Assembly: GCA_045837725.1 (NCBI GenBank)
Contig: JBEWZL010000227.1
Location: 310,001-372,833 of the forward strand
Source of the DNA: Vermamoeba vermiformis
Taxonomy: Eukaryota
Reading direction: 5' to 3'
DNA: 62,833 nt
Shown here: piece by piece, positions 19,358-50,860 of the stretch
Position numbering within the stretch: position 1 is the stretch's first letter
Layout of the letters: every line of letters begins with the position of its first letter
Notes under the pieces: model-generated
The model's input: the letters and a program-made list of their open reading frames with translations, nothing else
Told to the model about the DNA's origin: nothing
The model's database searches: none
Made by a program: the position numbers and the translations under genes

Positions 19358-20778
19358 TTACTTCAATGGTGGTAGACCAAGTTTGGCACGCAAAGCATTC
19401 ATGCCCTCAGTTGACATTTCGGCCAAACCTCCGCCTTCGCCTTTGGCTTGCTTTTCTTCATTATCATCTTTCTTTTGTCGCTTGCTACTGCGGCCTCCTT
19501 CTTCGCTAGCCTTGCGCTTGCGATCTGTAATTATGTATTAATTTCTATTCGTAACAATATTTTTTGCTGTGGAACTTACCTCGTGATCTCGATCTGCTTC
19601 TGTCACGTCTGTCTCTTCTGTCGCGACTTCTATCTCGATCTCTTCTATCTCTGGATCTTGATCTGCTTCGTCTAATAGCACGTGTTATTATTACTCATTA
19701 AAAAGAATTATTCTCCTTACCTTCTTCTGTCTCGCGATCTACTTCTGCTGCGTCTGTCTCGTCTCTCGCGACTTCGATCTCGATCACGTCTGTCTCTATC
19801 ACGACTTCTGCTGCGACTTCTTGAGCGCTTGTTACGATCTCTGTCACGACTTCTCGATCGTGATCTCTTGCGCCACTTTTCGGTCTTTTTCTCTTTCTCT
19901 TTTTCTTTGTCCTCTGAAGGCTCTTCTTCAGCTGACTCTTGAATTTCTTCTTCCAAGAAACTAATACGAGGACCTAACAGCTCCAAATCTTCCAACACTT
20001 GTCGCTTCATAATGCGCGGCAAGGCGACATCGAACACGCGTTCTTCGTGCAATAATTTATCGATGATTTCATCAACATGCATCATAACAAACTCTAGAAA
20101 ATAATAAAGTGAATGTTAGATTATTATAATCGATTTTCTATTAATTTAATGACGTACCTCCGTTGCCTTGTCGATATCGAATTTTTCTCATGTCAACGTA
20201 TAATGGCTCCAAATATTCGTAAATATCTACTGGCCGGCCAACCAATCGCAAATAAAATGCACCTAATATTCTTACATATCTAGTAAAATAGAAATTAATT
20301 CAAGATCCGATCGCTTTTAACACTGTCAAAATTAACTTACTTATAATCTTCGTTTGTTATAAATTCGACGATAATTTCTTTCTCGGGTTGTAATTGTAAC
20401 ATTTTGAGCACTAAACAAATAAACGGCGTTGGTTTAAGGTTTCCACCGTACATCCCGCCAACATATTTTAATTCTACTGCTCGATCGACTAATGTTGCCG
20501 CTAAAATAATATATTAATACGATATAATATGCAAAACATTGAGGATATTAGCCTGTCTGAAATGTGCAGCACAATATTAAAATAATTATTAAATTATTTT
20601 CAATCGCTCCTTTTGCTATTTATACGTTTAGACGAACAATATAATTACCTTTCAATGCAAAACATTTTTCCTTCCAATAATTGCTGCCATAAATTCTGGT
20701 TCGCATAATCGTCTCGATGAGATTCTGTGGATTCGTTCCATGGATGCTCTGAGCACCAGGATCCGTCTTATTCGCCAT
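19358..20778 (-). CDS. PRPF38A: Pre-mRNA splicing factor Prp38 (PRPF38A type) with an RS domain and a C-terminal HIND-like motif
   Basis: MANKTDPGAQSIHGTNPQNLIE...YWKEKCFAL, PTPFICLVLKMLQLQPEKEI, HVDEIIDKLL and RS/RD repeats. Ends MSTEGMNALRAKLGLPPLK-stop. Confidence 0.95.
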
Positions 20779-21610: not shown

Positions 21611-22047
21611 ACTATGATTCCATCGTGTACATACAATAAATTACTTAAACCAAAATTAGAAGGTTGTAATGCCGATGACAACAATTTCCGCACTGTTGCA
21701 ACAGCGATGGCATTGTCGACAATGATACTACTATATGTAAATGTCAAGAATTTCATCCTGTCTCCTTGTAGAAAGACTATCTTTGTGGGACCGCTTGTGA
21801 AACGTGTCTCTTATTATGTCGCTAAGATCTAGATCGAAAGAAGCGATTCCACAAGCACCACAATAGCCTGATTAAGATATATTTTTGCGAGTAAATTGTC
21901 GAAACGAATTTAAGAAGGTTAGTATTTTAAGACGACTTTAATTAAATCGAAAATTAATAAGTATTTAAAAAACGAAGTACTCCCAGCAACAATTAGTTAG
22001 TGTTAATAGAGGGGCGACATTAATTCATTTTTTTTCTCGCAGAACAC

Positions 22048-23158
22048 ATGGAACACGCCAAGGGACCAATTATATTCGATATTGGCTCGACGGTTGGAAA
22101 AGCAGGCTTCATTGACCAAGTAGAGCCTTTAAAGTGGCCTTCCATTGTGAGTTATCCAAAATGTCTCAAAAGTGCTGAACGAAAACACATCTACGTTGGC
22201 GACAGCGCGGTAGTACAGCGGCCATTGCAAGTATATGAATATCCAGTCCATCGAGGGCTAATAACGGACTGGAATTATATTGAAAGGATGTGGCGGTATG
22301 CTTTTGAAGAATTCCATGGCGATCCTGAAGAACACTCAGTTATGCTCTTAGAGCATCCACTAACACCAAAAGCTGCTCGCGAGAAGACTACACAAATAAT
22401 GTTTGAAACGTTCAAAGTACCTGCGGTCTTCATGGCCAATCCGTGCGTTGCTTCGATGCGCGCGGTCGGACGGACCACTGGAGTGGCCGTGAGCATGGGC
22501 GGACAGACTACATATTCGATGGCTGTCAAGGACGGCAAGGGCATGATAGAAACACTAAATTCGATGGATATTGGGTCTCAGGATGTTGTAGCCAGTTTCA
22601 TGAAGTCCATGATTCCCGAGAACTGGGACTCAGAGAACTTAACTTACCAAAATCTCGCTGCGCATATTCTTCGAAAGATAGGATACATAGCACTAGATTA
22701 CAATACTGAACTTCAAAAACTAGATAGTGAAGTGTCAGCCAGCTACGAAGATAAATATTGTGCCCTTACTTCGTCTTTCATCACGAGCGGTTCATGCACA
22801 CGGAGATAGTTTCCGCGAGCTGTTTGGACTCGAGAAGAGCGGCATTCACGACATGATATACAATTCAGTTAACAAGTGTGAACCAAGCATTCAGAGCGAA
22901 CTGTTCAAGAACATCGTTCTGTCCGGTGGTAATTCAATGACATGTGGGCTCGATGCGCGACTGATCAAAGAGCTTCAAATACTCTCGCCAGAGCACAGTA
23001 AGCACATGAGAATCGAACCAGGACTCTCGAGATTGGATCTGCCCTTCATTGGAGCTGCACGATTGGCTCAAACGCTCACTGATTGGATGACCAAAGCCGA
23101 GTACGACGAAGTTGGTACTTTGTTAGTGCATGAGAAGTGTCCAATAGGAGTGTGGTAG
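22048..23158 (+). CDS. Divergent intronless actin-related protein with two apparent frameshifts (pseudogene or assembly indels)
   Basis: Actin motifs IIFDIGS-x-x-x-KAGF, YPVHRGLITDW, REKTTQIMFETFKVPA, NIVLSGGNSM, WMTKAEYDEVG. The reading frame changes twice in 22760-22815. Confidence 0.85.
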
Positions 23159-29514: not shown

Positions 29515-31007
29515 ATGGAGCACTTAGAAGAGAGTTGGGTTCAAGTCGAGCGTGATCTGAAGGAAATTATCACTTTAAAGGTCTTCAATCGCAATGCCTT
29601 ATTATCAGGTGTGCGCAACAATTTCCAAGCCTGCCTGGAACTCGAAAGCGGCATACTACAGACTCAAAAGAAACGTCCAGCATTTAACTTATGCTTAGGT
29701 AAGTCTTCACCATGCAATTTTGACTATAAATAGCATTGAATACTCTATAAACAGTAAAAATATTAATACTCGCTTCTTAGTCATCGATCAAAGCGGATCC
29801 ATGGAAGGCGACAAATTAGAATTCGCAAAGCAGGCCGCGACGATGATCGTTGAAAATCTGATTGAAGGCGACGTACTTCATATCGTTACTTATTCAGATA
29901 ATGCTACGACAATATTCTCGGGTGGAAATCATAAAACGAAGCAAGAGATTATTTCAGCCATCAACAGCATTCGCGCAACGAGTAAGCAAGGCAATCGAGA
30001 TATTTGAGGCCTGTAATTAACGGGAAATCTCATTTTAGACAACACGAACTTGTACGGAGGATTAGAACAAGGCTACTCAATCTTAGTCAAAGAGCCAAAC
30101 AATGCCCGCAAGAGAATCTTTTTGTTTTCAGACGGACTAGTCAATCACGGCAAGACAGACGAGAAGGATATATTCGAGGGCGTGAGACAGATGCACAAGT
30201 CAGACATTAACTTCACGACGTTTGGCATTGGCAGTGACTTTGACGAGAAGATAATGCGCGGTGTTGCCGAACATGGCAGTGGCGACTATTTCTTTATTAA
30301 ACAAGCTGAAGATATTGTTACACAAGTAGGCAAGGGCCTGAAAGTATTGGTACGTGTTGCATGAGACATAGTTTATTACAAATAGTACTAACTTGCCTTC
30401 AACTGTGCAGCAAGACTTAGTCGGTTGCAATGCTCAATTGACATTACAAGGACAGAATGGCGCTATTGTTACAAAAGTCTACGGCTACGATGACTTTGAC
30501 AAGGGCACAATTAAGCTCGGCGATATCTGTCAAGACGATTTGCGACAGTTGTTGATCGATGTTCAAGCGGATGTCACTCTTACAGACAGCGAGATCACGT
30601 ACTTGAACTGGACTCTCTCGTTCGAGTCTGCCGAGAAGGTCTCAAAACACATGGTGTTGAGTGGCGTGGCAAAGATCAAGGCAGTCAGCGACCCCGCCAA
30701 GATCGAGGACGACCCCGCTCAAGTCAAAGTGTCGCAAGCAGTCAAGTTCTCAGCAGAACAAGACCGCGCTATCAAAGAACTGATCCGAAATGGAGAATTC
30801 GATTCAGCCGTGGAGAAGAAGAAAGAGGCTGTTGCAGCCCTTGAAAAAGTTGTTTCGTACGACTCTACGGGTGTTGTCAAGGCACTACTCAAATTAGCTG
30901 AATCAGCAATCGTTACGCTCGCAGAGCAAAAAGACGTCGCGCAAATGGAAAAAGAAGCTGACTATGCTGAATATGGTGCTAGTATTGTGCACCGAAAGTG
31001 TTTCTAA
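29515..31007 (+). CDS. von Willebrand factor A (vWA) domain protein
   Basis: MIDAS motif VIDQSGSM, TNLYGGL, IFLFSDG, TTFGIGSDFDEKIMRGVAEHGSGDYFFI. 4 exons. Confidence 0.9.
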
Positions 31008-35789: not shown

Positions 35790-38700
35790 TTAAAAGCCAA
35801 AATGTTTGTTCAAAGCCTCTTGAGCTTGTTGATCAACCTTAGCAATATCAGCCTTCAAACTGTCAACATTAGACTTCCATTCGTTCAATTTGTTCTCAAC
35901 GGCCTTGCGAGTAGCTTCGTTGGTCAATTGTTCATCACGGAGCAAACTGCCGAAGATGCGCAACAATTGCACGCGGTCGAGTTCAGGGTGCTTGGCAACG
36001 AGTTCAATCAACACGCCGTGGCAAACAACAGCCTCTTCGTGATCCTTGGTGATGGGCAACAACTTCATGAATTCGTCGACGAGCTTGTTGAACTCAACGG
36101 CCTCAGGAGTGTACAAGCACAACTTGCCCAAAGAGCTGATGGCGTTGTCGATGACAGGAGCGAACTCTTCGTCTTGCGACTTCTCGCCGTGAATCAACTC
36201 CTTCAAGCCCTTCAAAGCATCCTTGACGAAAGGAGCGTACTTGGCCTTGTAAGCTTGAGCATAGACACCAATGCCAAAGGCAGCAGCTTGAGCAACATCG
36301 TTCTCATCAGCTTGGATGTACTTGGTCACGACGGGCAAGAACTTCTCGAGCAAAGCAAAGCTCTCCTCGCCGATGTTCTCAGCAATGGCATCGACCATGC
36401 AGCACATGAACCAGGGACCGAATGCCTCCTTGAAGGCAGGAACAGCGGTCTTGGCGCCCTTCTTCTTGACAAGTCCGGCAATTTCAACCATACGTTGGTA
36501 GACCCAGAGATTGGGAGTGAAGGCCTTGACGAACAAGTCCTTGTTGTTCTTGGCAATAGCTTCAACAATGGAGATCAAATCACCGACAACAACGTCAGCC
36601 TCTTCAATATCACCATTGGGACTTTCGTCATCATCGTCTTCGTCGCCCATTTCTTCGTCATTTTCACCGGCCTCAGCAGCAACTTGATCAACAATTTCGA
36701 GAACAGTGGACATCAACTCGAACAATTTGTTGACTTGGTTGGCATTCAATTGGCCAAGGTTAATAAGAGCAGCCAAAGCCTCAAGCTTGGCATCGATAGT
36801 CTCGAGCGAAGGATCTTCAGTGACGGAGTTGATCAACGCGTGAATAATGTCAGAGAACAATTTGCTCTTGTCCTTGTCAGAGCCAGTAGCGCTCTTGTAC
36901 AAGCTGACCAATGAGATAGCAGCCTTCTCGCGGACCTTTTCCAAGTGAGCGTAGTTCAACATGTTGGAAGCCTTCTCGACGGCAACAGCGACGTGAGGAG
37001 CAAAGAGAGGACCCAAGTTCTCGGCAAAGAGACCGAGAGCCTTGACGGCCTTGGCCTTGTTGTTGAGTTGCAAGAACAAAGTCTGGTTCATGGCAGCAGG
37101 GTTAATACCGCCCATTGAAGCACCAGCACTCTTCATGCCACCCATATCATCGTCATCATCGTCTTCACCGAAGGGATCGATGTCGTCATCAGGGATATCT
37201 TCAACAGTCTCAATGATGGAGACAAGAGTCTTCATGTAGACATCCAAGTAAGGAGCGAAGTCTTGGCCGAGTACCTTGGCAGCGAGACCAGCAGTCAAGA
37301 CACAGACAGTCTTGAGCCAGTCTTCAGGGGATTGTTCCTTCTTTTCATTGCTCTCTTCCAGAGAAGGCAAATCGCCGAAGTTGAAAACAAAAGGCTTTTC
37401 ACCAGCAGGTTGAGCAGCGGGTTGAGCACCACCGAAGTTGAATGTGAAGTTGGGTTGAGCACCGGTAGTAGCGGCACCAAAGTTGAAGGTGGGGGCAGCA
37501 CCGGTGGAAGCAGTACCGAAGTTGAAAGCACCAGGAGTAGCGGGCTTGGGAGGTTGCTTGGCCTCAACTTCCTTGCGGATAGTCTCAAACTTCTTGACGG
37601 CAACATCGAGGGCAGCCTTGACAGCCTTCTTTGCCTCGTCGTCGACCTTGTATGAAGAAATTCTGCAAATGGTTTCGAGGACTTGACCAAGTTCTTCGTT
37701 GTCCTGAGTGTTCAACAACTTGGAGATGGCTTGCAAAGTGGCCTCACGGTAAGGCAAGAAGTGATCTTCTGCAGCACCAGCCAAAGCAGCAGCTGTGTAG
37801 AAAGAACGCTCGCGGATGTGCTTGTCCTCGCTGTTGATCAAAGGCAAGACACCCTCGAACAATCTCTTCAAGTAAGGAGCGAGGAGTTCAGGGTCGTCAA
37901 CCTTCTCGCAGAAGTTGTTCAATGAAGCAACGGCGACCAATTGGTTGCGCTTCTTAGTGCCGTCAAACAAGAAAGCCTCGAGGGCAGGCAAAATAGTGGC
38001 GTGGTATTTGTTTTGAAGCTCTGGGCCCAAGTCGTGCATCATCAAGCTGAGAGTGTGAACGGCAGCGTGAACGACGTCGGAGTGAGGGTGGTTCAATTGA
38101 GCCATAATGTAGTTCTTGAGGACCTTCTCCATCAAAGCGTCGCTAGTCTTGTAGACAGCAGCGCTGGCTTCGCAAGTAACAGCCAACATGAACAAAGCGG
38201 CGTGCTTGGCCTTGAAGTCAGCGTTGGGGTCAGTGAGAGGTTGGTCAACCAACTTCAAGACAGTGTTAAAGATAGTAGGGCCACCAACGACCATGCTCAA
38301 CTTGTCAACGTATTCAGTGAACTCTTGGTTAGGTCTGGGAGCATCGACGTCGCCAACCTTGTTGGGATCAGCATTCCATTCGTCGGTGGGCCAGTTGATC
38401 AACAAGTCTTGCAAAGCCTTCAACATCATGTGCAAGCTCTCATCGCTGACAGGGTTGACGTCATCCATTTCGTCGTGATCATGATTGCAGTTCTCGCCGT
38501 GCACGTGCTCGTGAGCGTGAGCCTTAGCCTTGGGTTCGGCGGGCTCTTCCTCATCGTCCTCTTCGTCTTCTTCATCTTCCTCATCGCCAAAATCAGCACC
38601 CATCATTTGAGCAACGGCGAATTGAGCAAGAGACTCCCAGACGTTAACAACGTTGTCCAACAACAAGTGGACGATCATCTTGCTGCGCTTGTTGTGCTTC

Positions 38701-40021
38701 AAGCAGATAGCCAACAAATCAGTCAAGTTGACGATGTACTTGTCGTTGTAGTTGTTGAAAAAGTTGACGACCTTAGTCTCAGGCTCGCCAATCAAATCTT
38801 CCCAAATAATGAAGACGCTTGCAACCAACTTCTGGTTGTTCTTTTCAATTTCTAAATAGCGCGGGTTAGAACACAGTGCCAGAAAACACAATCTTTGAGA
38901 TACGCACCAGGATTTTCGTTGACGTTGCCTTGGACAACTAAAACCTTCAAGAAGTCGAGCGAGAAATCAGCAAAGTTTTGCAAGAACTTCTCGAGGTTGG
39001 CGGGAGCAGCCTTGCCAGAAGTGATATCAATCATAGCGGCGTGAATAGTCTCCAACATAGCGCCGGCGTTCTTGGGATTCATTTCAGTTTCAGTCTTGTT
39101 GACTGGCTTGGGTGCCTCAGCGGCTTTAGCACTAGAAAATACAATGCATGGTCAGACACGGAATTCCAACTCGATATCCTCGGTTCGTTTGCTGCTTACC
39201 CTCCACGGGCCTTGCCTCCACGACCACGGCCGCCACGACCACCACGGCTGCTTGCAGCCTTGGCCTTTCGGGCGTTTTGCTTCTCCATAACAGTCCAGAG
39301 ATCTTGCTCGAGGGCAGTGTAAAGATCTCTGTTAATGAACCATTAGTCGTTGAAAAATGTCAGTATAAATCATTAAAAATATTACCTCAAAATATAGTAA
39401 CGGCGCCAGTCAACTTCATTGTTATCTGTTCGAAGAAAACAGTCAGATCGGATTAGGAAATTTAATTGAATAGAAATACGTGAGCTGTCATGTTTGATTT
39501 CGGTTCATTAAATCGTAAAAAAATATTAGCGTATGATTATGGGTAGCAGATTACTCGTACCAGTCAAAGGGATCAACCAGTTGGATTGATCGACCTTGTC
39601 TCCAGGGAGCTTAGTGGACCATCTCTTAGAGCAAATATTCTTCCACACTGTTTGATCTTCAGCAGATTGGGTCCATCCAGCAGCGCGAGCTTTTTCAGCT
39701 AAAAAGAAGACCGATCAGATCAGAAGATCAAGCAACACAAAAAAGCCAAGAATATTTGCATACGTCCAAGTACTACATAATTCGTTTATCATAAATGCAA
39801 CTTTGAGAACAAAATAATTAAATGCCGAAAACGATCTGCGAAACGGCTAGATTTGTGATCTGTGGGTGGATTTACCCCCTTAATTAATCAAAAATCATTT
39901 TGCAGGCATATCTGAATAAGCAACAAACTTGGAGTAATTATACACATTAACGAATCATACCAAGCTGGCGAGGGTCAGATTGATACAACGACCAAAGTTC
40001 GGCTTCTGACAACTTGTTCAT
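35790..40021 (-). CDS. Karyopherin-beta (importin-4/5-like) HEAT protein with an N-terminal F-box-like and RGG extension and an internal FNFG-repeat insertion
   Basis: Importin-5-like motifs VDKLSMVVGG, KHAALFMLA, HPHSDVVHAAVHTL, LGQDFAPYL, VAQAAAFGIG, IDNAISSLGK, LPITKDHEEA. In-frame exons 40021-39961, (39772-39764), 39698-39561, 39425-39386, 39328-39200, 39131-38908 and 38851-35790. Confidence 0.85.
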
Positions 40022-40258
40022 CGCGTAGTAGTGGTTCTTATTTGCAAAAAATTAAGAGATGAGCCACAAACAATTTGTTGGTTCCTCTTCTATCGATTTT
40101 TTATGAAATTTAGTTGCCCTGGTAAGATCTGGGGTGGATCCAGTATTTCGGGCAGAGAAGTGGCCATTAGATCAAGATCATGTACAAACAACGTTAATGT
40201 TTAATATTATCCAAAATTAGTTGGATCTGCCTGACAAGTATCCAAAGTGTTAATTGAG

Positions 40259-42929
<2,671 letters not shown>

Positions 42930-44699: not shown

Positions 44700-45823
44700 T
44701 TAAAACAAAGGCGGGTTGCTCGGAGCAGGTGCAGCTTGAGGTTGATAATCACCAGGTGTGCTTAGGGGTGTGGTAGAATTGCTGGGGGCAGGGACTGGTT
44801 CGTAGGGTGCTTCGGTGTAAATGAACTTCAAATAGATGATCACTGTAATAATAATCACGAGCACGACGATGATCAAGATTTGCAATAATTTGTTCTTCAT
44901 GAATGTCGCCCAAATGCGGTTCATAATCTTCTTGGCTGTGTCGAGCTGTTCGTTGATGCCTTTGACCTGCCCAGAAAATTATTACTCGGTCCTTAATCAC
45001 AACTTAAATGTTTCACGTACGTTTCTGCGCTGTGATTCAATTCGTTCGCGTTGTTCACCGAGCGTTCTCAATGTATTTGAGCCGCTTTCAAGCGCACCCA
45101 ATGCAACTGAGTGCGCGTTTCTAATGTCATCACCTTGACCGTCCAACTGTTGTGTCAATGAGCGCATTTGATTTCGTTGATCCAACGATGTAGTCTACAA
45201 CGACAGCGTTAATATACTGACTTAAACGCATTGAAAGAGAATGCAATGATGTTGCAACAACATTACGAGATAACACGTACAATATCGCGGTCAGTACCAC
45301 CCAACAAGCTCATACGATCGCTCTTCTCCGAGAGGTTCTGTAAATCACGTCTCAAATTCTTCAAATCTGCTTTGTAATTCTTGACTTGCGATGATAACTC
45401 GTCGACTAGACCATGTTAAGACCGTGTTAAAAACGATAGATATCATTGAAAGTCACTTACATTTGCCGGGAATTGTTCGAGCACTCAACTCCATTGAATC
45501 GAGCTATGAATTTAGCGTATTAGTTAAACTGATATTGATACTGGTAGCCCTGAACTTGAGCTACAAAGATAGATCGCTGGTGTTTAATTGATAATTACCA
45601 ATTGTTCGGCTTCTTTGTAGGCATTTTCTGCTTCTCTGACAGCATATCGTTTATCGTCTATAATAGCAAGTAATAAATAACAGATTTTTCCAATTTTCCG
45701 AAAATAAAATCGTTATTTTGCACAATAATTACCTCCAGCAAGTTCTACTGCGTTCTGAATTTTATCCTTAATCTCGCTCACTAAATCGAGATAGTCTGCT
45801 TGATATTGCTTGTAGAGATCCAT
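44700..45823 (-). CDS. VTI1: Vti1-type Qb-SNARE
   Basis: Habc domain (AEQLLDSMELSAR...VKNYKADL), DQRNQM, a SNARE motif with LGEQRERI, and a TM segment (LLQILIIVVLVIIITVIIYLKF). Confidence 0.9.
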
Positions 45824-46367: not shown

Positions 46368-47348
46368 TTAGTTGGGGTTGACAAGCACAGAGATCGAGCT
46401 CCTAACTCGGATGTCTTGCTCTTTTTTGCATCTGTTGGCGTATCGCAGGCCACAAGCATTGCATAATGAAGCGGGACCATTAGGACCTTTGCGCCACTGA
46501 GGAGTAACTGAAGTATGACATTTATCGCATTGCTGTCGGTTCTTGGGTTTGATGACCTTAGGTCTGTTATGTGACTTGCGCCACACTTGCAACATTTGAT
46601 AACGACCAGCGTCGCTGTCTGAGCGAGATTGCTCCTCTTTTTTCACTTCAAGGTGTCTCTCTTTGTAGTTCTGTTGTAGCCTTTGAGCTTCGTACATAGT
46701 TCTATACTCATCAGGGGTGGGGATAGGACTGTTTAATAAGAATATATTAGTTTCAGGGTCAGAGTTGGGTTGGATTGAAAGAAAGTTGCTCTAGATTTAG
46801 ATGAACTTACGTAGTGTTCTGCAACCATGTGGGGTTAACGGCTGGGATATGCATTGATATCAGGGCCTGCGAGGCGCACGAGGTCGATGATGATTCTGAA
46901 GAAGGCTCTTCATTACTCTGTAAAGGAGGATTAGTTCTGGGTTGGGATTAAATCGGACATTTAATTTCCAAATTTGGAATTTAGCACGATGTCGCATGAT
47001 CATCAGGGAAGCATTGAATGCTAGTTACCTTGCAAGCCCAAGCTGAAGGGGGTTTATATTGCTCTTGTTGAGTTTCGGCCACAGATCTAAGATTGGCCAT
47101 TAATTGCAGAGACAACAAAGCCGCTCGTTCGAGCTCTTCGTTCGAGGTGACTTTTTGTTGCTTCTGCTTTTCGTCCACCAGCTGAAAGATTTGCTTACAA
47201 GTTTGCTCGACCTAAATTTCGAATATTTTAGCATCACGAGGATCGAATTTATGATTTTAAATATTGCAGTATTTGATATGCGAACACTTACTGTGCTCCA
47301 ATCGGCTTTATTTGATGTTGTAATTGTTTGATAGCTGTAAGTCGTCAT
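46368..47348 (-). CDS. GATA zinc-finger transcription factor
   Basis: [27 protein letters not shown] (C-x2-C-x18-C-x2-C) in the last exon. The upstream exons and start are less certain. Confidence 0.88.
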
Positions 47349-48168: not shown

Positions 48169-50860
48169 ATGGCTGACGCCAATAATATATTGCTGTTTCA
48201 AACATTGAACAGCTCAGTTAATGTCACGTTTTGGTATGAATTCGCAAAGAAAAAGTTGGAAGTTTACAAGTTAAAAGAAGATCCGATTCCCGTGTATGGA
48301 TATTACAGCATTGAAGGACACGTTGACCTTCCTGCGCAAATGCAACTTGATATCGACTCGTTCTCGGCCGATTTAAAGTAAAATCGCGATCCAAATTTAA
48401 TATTTTTAAATTTCGAAAATTTTTGTTGCCTCTGCACTAACGAATTTATTCTCGAAAGATGATTATTGCTTATTAATAGATTATTGTGCATGTATATATG
48501 AAAATATTAAATAATTACCTTCTCTTGTTGCAGAGTTCCAACAAATTCATTCATGCTGCCTGGCACGATGGTCAATATGAATACAATCGAGTCGTTCAAG
48601 GCATTAAATAAGGTTCAACTGCTTGATACGCTCACACAAGAGGTACATCCATTGTCGTAACAGTAATAATGAAAAATCTTCTGATTCTATTTGCAACGGC
48701 TAGATCTTTGAGGCCATTCAAAGCGGAAAGTTCTTAACCGACCCGAGCATGTTAAACAAGTTCTTGCTCGTATCATATGCAGACATCAAGAAGTATATAT
48801 TCTACTATCACTTTGCTTTCCCGGCACTCGTGCCTGATCAGGTTTGTCTAAAGTCGAAGGAACCTGTTGCCTCAGAACTAACTCTTTATCTTCATCTAGC
48901 TCGCCACTCTTGCAACTGAGTCTAAGAAGATTACGGACGTCTATTCAGAACAACAGGTAATGCCACCCTATTCGTGTTCGTGTTGTCCGCATTAACGTGC
49001 TTTAGATCGCCCAACTGAAAGACCAAGCCCTGCCTTTGTTTGCTAAAGGTTCACCTTTCTTACTAATCAACCCCGAATCTCTTGCTGTGTCGGAACTCAG
49101 TGCTCTCTCAACTCTTTCAACAATGCCTATGCTGCTCGTGGCAGATCCGAGCGCTCACCCTTCCGCTCTTGGCTGGCCCACTCGTACATTGCTTTGGGCC
49201 TTGCAATCATACTGCAGTAAGCATAGTAAGACCGTCAATGGTCCCTTGCGTGTGATTGCATGGAGACATCACCGAGGAGGTAACATCAATGCCTCGAACC
49301 CTGAATTCAACTCCGTGGTGTTTGACGTTAAGTTGCCCGAACGTAAGTATCTTATTTACAATATAACACCATCTGACGCCGATTAGTGAGCAAGGAGAGC
49401 CTCGAGAAGTGTCCTAAGGCAGTGGGCTGGGAGAAGGATTTGCAATCAAAGATGAGACCTCGCGTGTTGAACTTGGCCCAAACAATGGACCCTGTTAGGT
49501 TGAGCAGCAGTGCTGCTGATCTAAATCTCAAATTGATGAGCTGGCGTCAATTTGGAGGTTTGCAACTGACTGACATTCAGAGCACCAAGTGCCTTTTGTT
49601 CGGTGCGGGTACTCTTGGCTGCAACGTGGCACGTAGCTTGTTGGTAAGTTAATTAATGTACGATATATCCATAGCTTATATTGTCGTAGGCCTGGGGTGT
49701 TCGACACATCACGTTCATCGACAATGGCAAGGTCTCGTATTCAAACCCCGTGCGTCAGTCACTTTTCACACTTGAAGATTGCTTGAACGGTGGCAAACAA
49801 AAGGCTGTGGCAGCTGCACATCGATTGAAAGAGATCTTTCCTGCATTAGTAAGCTCTATACCCTTATTATAATAATACGCATCTGATGATGACCCCTTGA
49901 CCTAGGTTAGTGAGGGTCACGTCATGACCATTCCGATGCCCGGTCACATTGTTAAATCCACCGATGAAATCAAACAGACTAAGGAAACAGTTGAGAAGAT
50001 TGAGGTAAACATATTATTCGCTGTAACATCGGTTGTACTAACCATTTTCAAGTCCCTGATTGACAGTCACGACGTCATCTTTTTGTTGACTGATAGCCGT
50101 GAGAGTCGATGGTTGCCAACTATGTTGTGCGCTGCTAAGAATAAGGTATCTCTGCATACTCACTTTAGCATGACGCGATCATAAATTAACGGCATGGTCT
50201 AGTTGGTATTGAACGCAGCTCTTGGCTTCGACACGTTTGTTGTCATGCGTCACGGCGTTGCTGAGACCAATCCGCGTCTCGGCTGCTACTTCTGCAACGA
50301 CGTTGTTGTGCCCACTGATGTACGCATTTATATATCGAGGCATTCTAAAATTAACATTTTGAAATCAGTCCTTGTCCAACCGCACTTTGGATCAACAGTG
50401 CACCGTGACTAGACCGGGCTTGAGCTCAGTTGCCAGTGCCCTCGCTGTCGAGTTGTTGGTGTCGCTCATTCATCACCCAATGAAGGGCAAGGCTCCTGCT
50501 AGCGACAAAGCAGATGCACAAATGGGTGGCGAGTTGCCGACGGATCTTGGTCTCGTGCCTCATCAGTTGCGAGGCTTCTTGACGCACTTCAACAACATGA
50601 TCGTTACTAGCGAGCAGTTCGACAAGTGTGTTGCGTGCTCGGATCCGGTACGCAGTCTGTTGCTTGCCTCGTGACACTTGTTACTAACACTAGGTGCACA
50701 GATTGTTCACGAGTACAAGAAACGTGGTTTTGAGTTATTATTGGAGGCTTTTAATGCTCCGAACGTGTTGGAGGACCTCACTGGCATCACTAAGATGAAG
50801 GAAGAGAGCGCTAACTTGGATGTCGACTGGGAGATCGGCAGCGACAACGACGATTTTTAA
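48169..50860 (+). CDS. ATG7: Autophagy E1-like enzyme ATG7
   Basis: [66 protein letters not shown] and catalytic [13 protein letters not shown]. Confidence 0.97.

Follow-up and report, generated by a model that had tools for sequence, protein, structure and literature searches.

We analysed a stretch of 62,833 nucleotides from the eukaryote Vermamoeba vermiformis (positions 310,001 to 372,833 of contig JBEWZL010000227.1, assembly GCA_045837725.1), hereafter the window, in whose own numbering all positions are given. Its minus strand carries a gene of six exons. Judging by sequence comparison, the encoded protein is a member of the F-box family whose second domain derives from a karyopherin, and its lineage is one where the F-box itself has drifted. 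The exon chain was read from the sequence and then checked. It comprises 3654 nucleotides (nt) and translates into 1217 amino acids (aa), with no stop codon between the ATG at 40021 and the terminal stop at 35790. Every intron begins with GT and ends with AG, and an in-frame TAA lies 11 codons 5' of the ATG.

Exons 1 to 4 encode a head and the start of a linker. The ATG and a degenerate first F-box helix are in exon 1 (39961..40021; residues 1-20), and exon 2 (39561..39698; residues 21-66) adds the rest of the F-box remnant, helices 2 and 3, together with the first half of a tryptophan-rich motif (..VWKNICSKRW..NWLIP). The DWRRYY portion of this motif, with the invariant D72, W73 and Y77, is encoded by exon 3 (39386..39425; residues 67-79). 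It is followed in exon 4 (39200..39328; residues 80-122) by a long predicted helix, spanning residues 73-102 in the AlphaFold2 (AF2) model, and then by an RGG box (39200..39252; residues 106-123) at the position where relatives have a K/R-rich linker. Exon 5 (38908..39131; residues 123-197) continues the linker into the first helices of a shortened N-terminal arch and holds an internal methionine, Met140. All the remainder, an importin-5/Kap121-like HEAT body, is encoded by exon 6 (35790..38851; residues 198-1217 and the stop). It includes an acidic/His-rich loop (38460..38594; residues 284-328), the landmark VDKLSMVVGG (38280..38309; residues 379-388), from which single-sequence alignments to Kap121/IPO5-like proteins start, and, between HEAT repeats, an insert with four FNFG motifs of the FxFG type (37374..37532; residues 638-690). 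The chain translation opens with the peptide MNKLSEAELWSLYQSDPRQL, followed by one alanine at the junction of exons 1 and 2 and then by EKARAAGWTQSAEDQTVWKNICSKRW. The peptide VDWRRYYILRD lies downstream, and SSRGGRGGRGRGGKARGG, with its four RGG, corresponds to residues 106-123. A preliminary description of this DNA had bracketed VLGP at the first junction, which is incorrect, because the junction encodes the single alanine; the other peptides that it quoted are all present in the translation.

The locus is one gene, with one mRNA and one protein of 1217 residues. Sequencing runs numbered 23, four of which were examined: three runs of contigs from three studies (X1, X2 and X4) and one of raw reads (X21). 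The contig runs are labelled RNA by guess only, and we take them to be transcript-derived because their contigs lack introns, those of the neighbouring gene included (X4 record 8). All five exon joints (38851|38908, 39131|39200, 39328|39386, 39425|39561 and 39698|39961) are present in all three contig runs, with CT..AC ends on the plus strand, and single contigs extend from exon 6 to exon 1 (38290..40038 in X2 record 6, 38020..40024 in X4 record 7 and 38768..40017 in X1). The upstream exons are thus coding and joined in frame to the HEAT body through GT-AG introns, as had been proposed from the letters of the sequence. Depth was zero in bins wholly within introns 1 and 2 and in an intergenic bin (40093-40183), and it was reduced in bins overlapping the short intron 4, matching the expectation from their exon portions alone. 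Of the 18 variants seen in the contigs, 17 are synonymous third-position changes in the frame of the chain, including all five of those in exons 2-5. Most raw reads of X21 that found a place matched an acidic stretch of low complexity (38546-38636) and had flanks foreign to the locus, so that this run was uninformative.

Comparison with close relatives gives the same gene structure. P0002, a protein of 1215 aa that the Joint Genome Institute (JGI) modelled independently in a related species, is 86% identical to the studied protein and has the same exon chain. Identity is higher in the head (99 of 106 residues) than over the entire protein, and residues 1-43 do not differ at all. Scanning metagenomes with the head alignment yielded three loci, one of which (L001) is a close relative that shows only two replacements in residues 1-43. 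Exons of the window and of L001 are 85-93% identical without gap columns, whereas introns are 52-67% identical with many gaps; L001 also keeps all ag/gt sites and all exon lengths, and its chain has no stops. Synonymous codon differences between the two outnumber replacements by 51 to 12 in exons 1-5 and by 30 to 8 in exons 1-4, and the peptide of exon 1 is unchanged despite four synonymous differences. From these comparisons, the head is under strong purifying selection and must have some function.

These data bear directly on whether the upstream exons could be a separate small gene or an untranslated region, their fusion to the HEAT body being an artefact of assembly or gene modelling. Left unspliced, exon 4 stays open for only some 45 nt of intron 4 before it meets a stop; exon 5 has the in-frame Met140, the sole candidate start for a separate HEAT protein; and P0001 (1012 aa), the only database protein without the upstream exons, starts within exon 6. 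All three observations would suit two genes, but the joint between exons 4 and 5 (39131|39200) lies inside single contigs spanning exons 1 to 6 in the three contig runs, and the bins of intron 4 have reduced depth. Met140 is replaced by leucine in L001 and is therefore not a conserved start codon. As for P0001, it begins at a leucine encoded by TTG, and its sequence identifies it as an open reading frame (ORF) called by bacterial rules, which is no evidence on the exons. Finally, the head-plus-body layout is common to four independent gene models (P0002, P0017, P0020 and P0021) and to the genomic locus L003, described below. A division of the locus is contradicted by the contigs running from exon 1 to exon 6 and by the loss of Met140, and we consider it extremely improbable.

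The body of the protein is, by sequence similarity, a diverged importin-5/Kap121 HEAT arch, equivalent only to the part of these receptors that extends from about residue 260-280 to the C-terminus. Over the 1058-aa open frame, the Pfam profiles TPR_IMB1, HEAT_EZ and HEAT score above their cut-offs, and Importin_rep_6 and TPR_IPO5 are sub-threshold. The closest database relatives besides P0001 and P0002 are IPO5-like proteins with 22-29% identity (nine proteins at E<=0.001 among 7999 candidates scored). Searches of solved structures with P0002 matched importin-5 (6xte, E 1.5e-36), Kap121 (3w3t, E 1.9e-24, query 376-590 to chain 339-549) and importin-4 (E 4.4e-9), and BLASTP aligned its residues 376-1211 with residues 438-1184 of the IPO5-like protein P0003, from the VDKLSMVVGG landmark through the C-terminus. 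A profile built from seven members of the family described below reaches further, matching residues 279-1029 of IPO5 with its positions 206-956 (E 6.9e-45) and residues 270-1016 of Kap121 with its positions 188-946 (3w3z, E 1e-31), the match starting from residue 259 in other Kap121 chains. The best-conserved block of the family alignment lies at about residues 479-604 and may be the counterpart of the NLS-binding (nuclear localization signal-binding) repeats of Kap121. An origin from CAND1 was also considered and rejected: its match (E ~1e-6, profile positions 383-649 only) is about 39 orders of magnitude weaker than that of IPO5 and represents generic HEAT similarity.

What precedes this arch in the canonical receptors seems to be missing. 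The first ~260-280 residues of IPO5 and Kap121 found no counterpart, the family-profile search included, and Pfam detected no IBN_N domain in the first 285 residues of the protein at E<=10. Both results agree with the preliminary description, which could recognise no IBN_N and regarded the part before the landmark as shorter than in importin-5. These two absences support a shortened importin that is probably blind to Ran. Could it nevertheless be a working nuclear transport receptor, in which the ~150 residues of helices after the linker keep enough Ran-binding surface, with the head and the RGG box as regulatory additions? The body and the C-terminus are colinear with IPO5 and Kap121, residues 136-285 have features in a protein language model (Atlas) that resemble those of internal karyopherin repeats (0.90-0.93, to be read as a lead only), and the FxFG insert gives a hint of some connection with the nuclear pore. 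Yet neither an IBN_N domain nor any equivalent of the receptors' first ~260-280 residues could be found, and the canonical F-box of the relatives points away from transport, which makes a working receptor quite unlikely in our opinion.

The descent of the head (~105 aa) from an F-box is supported by its distant homologues. A phmmer search with residues 1-103 of P0002 against 1.84 billion representative proteins gave six matches at E<=0.001: two distant homologues of the head (P0012, E 9.9e-7, query 16-96; P0015, E 5.8e-4), two exon fragments of close relatives (P0010 and P0013) and two repeat proteins that we regard as noise (P0011 and P0014). Both distant homologues pass the F-box-like profile PF12937 (cut-off 24.3 bits) exactly over the aligned N-terminal segment, P0012 with 43.4 bits (E 2.9e-11) and P0015 with 41.0 bits (E 1.6e-10). 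The head is F-box-related, being homologous to proteins whose aligned N-termini match this profile. A profile search with the head found two further relatives, P0016 and P0017, and alignment A4 contains 13 invariant columns (D35, W39, C43, W47, P52, N60, W61, I63, P64, D72, W73, Y77 and R80). The third F-box helix and the subsequent tryptophan-rich motif are well kept, and are the only parts of the module recognisable in the protein of the window. The AF2 model of the head (predicted local distance difference test, pLDDT, of 76) consists of three short helices (residues 6-11, 22-34 and 36-47), a hairpin and the long helix. We also considered whether the stretch ..KN.I..RW could be a remnant of IBN_N, and rejected this: it aligns to the third F-box helix of the relatives, and Pfam finds no IBN_N there.

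The relatives form a conserved and apparently undescribed family, whose members P0012 and P0015-P0021 are labelled "hypothetical protein" by their sources. P0017 (976 aa) is colinear with P0002 in BLASTP alignments (residues 33-107 to 2-88, E 2e-9; residues 330-596 to 224-486, E 6e-10) and itself matches Kap121 (E 3.7e-7); a search with it retrieved four further relatives, P0018, P0019, P0020 and P0021. The last of these, a full-length model of 1043 aa, carries the F-box-like domain (E 1.5e-9, 37.9 bits) in the same polypeptide as the HEAT arch. At the genomic locus L003, F-box exons immediately precede, on one and the same strand, those that encode the linker and the HEAT part; its second exon alone passes the profile (E 1.6e-6, 28.3 bits). 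A profile-positive F-box is therefore found in all four distant relatives whose N-terminus is available (P0012, P0015, P0021 and L003), and alignments A3 and A5 extend to the C-terminal YDNAL and LPP..GD..EA motifs. The L003 gene (3108-5283, plus strand) lies on a metagenome contig and resembles P0020; its F-box exons are missing from the models of P0020 and P0017, both of which start with M..DNELW. These two models are probably truncated at the 5' end.

Members of this family share with the protein of the window the F-box, the motif D.ELW..C..RW...NWLIP...DWRRYY, a basic linker and a Kap121-like arch, in the same order over the full length. They are only ~20% identical to it and differ in several features: their F-box scores above the profile cut-off, their linker is rich in lysine and they carry an F.KGW motif, whereas RGG box, FNFG insert and acidic/His loop are all absent from them. 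The fusion is, on the evidence of these comparisons, an old and family-wide architecture and no local novelty, so the earlier wording, which had an F-box-like motif "spliced onto" a shortened importin, was misleading.

What might such a protein do? We propose that an import receptor has been turned into a client receptor of the SCF (Skp1-cullin-F-box) type, or otherwise linked to Skp1. The former cargo-binding arch would hold clients, most likely basic or NLS-like segments as in importin-5 and Kap121, without Ran-driven release, so that the protein would no longer be an import receptor controlled by Ran. The head would couple the arch to Skp1, and through it to a cullin ligase, as an SCF-type substrate receptor, or else to another Skp1 complex. 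Importin-5 and Kap121 recognise basic NLSs of the IK type and bind histones, according to passages of PMC7752055. Pfam found no Skp1 domain among the 45 ORFs of the window that were scanned. We infer this function as a whole, and hold its chances of being right and of being wrong to be about equal.

Several observations weigh against this proposal. The head itself has no F-box or F-box-like match in Pfam at E<=10, in searches with the whole of P0002 and with the first 285 residues, of which residues 1-43 are identical between P0002 and the window. In residues 1-33, LP has become LS, single residues are deleted at two places and several core hydrophobic positions are replaced. Against a hidden Markov model of the start of the F-box in the relatives, this segment scores 1.4 bits, a value also attained by 59 of 2000 shuffled sequences. 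Structural comparison of the head model gave little: the best row in Foldseek has E 0.44 (a chain of an Elongin complex), FBXW8 ranks eighth with E 4.0, the F-box and Elongin chains being within noise, and the best Z score in VIA-align, 4.5, is within noise too. The Atlas search with the head returned values of 0.78-0.84 only, with a few F-box clusters among the rows, and is again a lead only. Outside the head, the loss of Ran binding is deduced from absent sequence similarity. The AF2 model of 630 residues is confident only from about residue 390, with pLDDT <50 over most of residues 1-375, and it is therefore from the sequence that the HEAT repeats of the N-terminal part have to be counted. 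Lastly, the contigs prove the presence of the spliced form, beside which alternative transcripts may exist. The F-box-like motif of the preliminary description therefore stands in one sense and fails in another: the head is homologous to F-box-like-positive relatives, but has no profile match of its own.

The first two F-box helices are, by alignment, far from the consensus in the studied lineage, and the coupling to Skp1 may be weakened or altered. Taken to its end, this drift would leave a decayed F-box that does not bind Skp1, in a protein that works with neither Ran nor a ligase and holds, chaperones or sequesters basic proteins. Its RGG and FxFG motifs would possibly contact RNA or condensates, and the head would serve another partner or an intramolecular contact. 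The missing profile match and the near-chance score of residues 1-33 are as such a decay would have them. Likewise, the RGG box, the four FNFG and the acidic/His loop are specific to the lineage and have no equivalents in the canonical relatives, and the low identity to this canonical group suggests an altered role. Residues 1-43 are, however, identical in P0002 and have only two replacements in L001, and the third helix and the tryptophan-rich motif are retained. Moreover, functional F-boxes vary widely. A ligase-free holder thus seems to us possible, if on the unlikely side.

The proposal of an SCF-type or Skp1-linked client receptor can also be widened to all the relatives. The entire family would then consist of SCF receptors derived from the Kap121/importin-5 groove, which would read NLS-like basic segments free of Ran and hand their bearers to the SCF through the F-box, so that nuclear or ribosomal proteins whose import had failed would meet their degradation in a "mirror image" of the very importin that serves them. 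The FxFG motifs and the RGG pseudo-cargo linker of the studied protein may, in such a system, gate the groove or bring the ligase to the pore. We put this broader version forward as a doubtful speculation.

All aligned relatives that cover the linker region (P0019 does not reach it) have a basic linker, with clusters of lysine and arginine at the position of the RGG box in P0012, P0015, P0016, P0017, P0018, P0020 and P0021; the studied protein has RGG instead. Its four RGG are closely spaced, in a stretch that is disordered in the model, and form an RGG cluster; the Pfam profile FoP_duplication matches the box with E 0.11 only. As a matter of speculation, the basic or RGG linker next to the arch might serve the protein itself as a signal for nuclear import, or act as a pseudo-substrate or pseudo-cargo. 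The FNFG insert has three FNFG and one FNFS in P0002 and is absent from the distant relatives. FNFG motifs are of the kind found in nucleoporin repeats, here within an importin-derived protein; possible partners for them are transport receptors or the outer surface of the protein itself. Shortly before the landmark, a long run of acidic residues gives way to a stretch rich in histidine, HAHEHVHGENCNHDHD. The loop that contains them is predicted to be disordered (pLDDT <50, without secondary structure in the model) and might bind metal. It is less conserved than the remainder: 56 of 70 residues (291-360) are identical to P0002.

An F-box protein owes its identity to the targets of its second domain. 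The studied protein resembles the known ones (PF00646, PF12937) in its N-terminal module, helical linker and repeat solenoid, but differs from them in lying below the cut-offs of the F-box and F-box-like profiles. With human IPO5 (RanBP5) and yeast Kap121 (Pse1, importin subunit beta-3) it has in common a homologous HEAT arch and C-terminal motifs, but it lacks their N-terminal ~260-280 residues and IBN_N and adds the F-box-derived head, the RGG linker, the acidic/His loop and the FxFG insert. CAND1, a cullin-associated HEAT protein, offers a parallel as a HEAT solenoid tied to SCF biology. We found no description of an architecture combining an F-box with a karyopherin arch in a search of the full-text literature outside subscription-only journals and domain-architecture databases; in the consulted part of PMC9699179, the F-box is mentioned solely in the context of auxin receptors. 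An importin arch as the second domain of an F-box protein would link import and chaperoning with the degradation of basic, aggregation-prone nuclear proteins and, if our proposal is true, would be a natural example of a karyopherin without Ran control. The family offers canonical and drifted versions of the F-box within one architecture, together with a gene model verified by transcripts.

The surroundings of the gene are those of ordinary eukaryotic housekeeping genes with short introns. We scanned 45 of the 57 stop-to-stop ORFs of at least 110 aa in the window; the 12 that were dropped either shared sequence with the studied gene or duplicated other ORFs, in antisense or by overlap. The upstream neighbour, on the same strand (40259-42300, minus), is a multi-intron gene for 6-phosphofructo-2-kinase/fructose-2,6-bisphosphatase (Pfam 6PF2K, E 3.9e-18 and 1.6e-13; His_Phos_1, E 1.3e-5). 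A distance of ~240 nt separates its stop from the studied gene's ATG. It has a separate contig of its own without introns, and contigs bear out two of the introns, with joints 40407|40463 and 40528|40580. Further away, Pfam matched exons of Peptidase_M54 (1735-2109, plus), PRP38 (19720-20115, minus), VWA (30017-30361, plus), a GATA zinc finger (46371-46790, minus) and ATG7_N (49006-49383, plus), as well as an actin-family gene split by an intron or a frame change (Actin, 22024-23155, plus). An exon at 45000-45194 (minus) scores 26.5 bits with V-SNARE_C (E 8e-6), just short of the cut-off of 27.1, and the ORF beside it (44700-44978) has a hydrophobic stretch at its end. On sequence grounds, the two probably form a Vti1-like SNARE gene.

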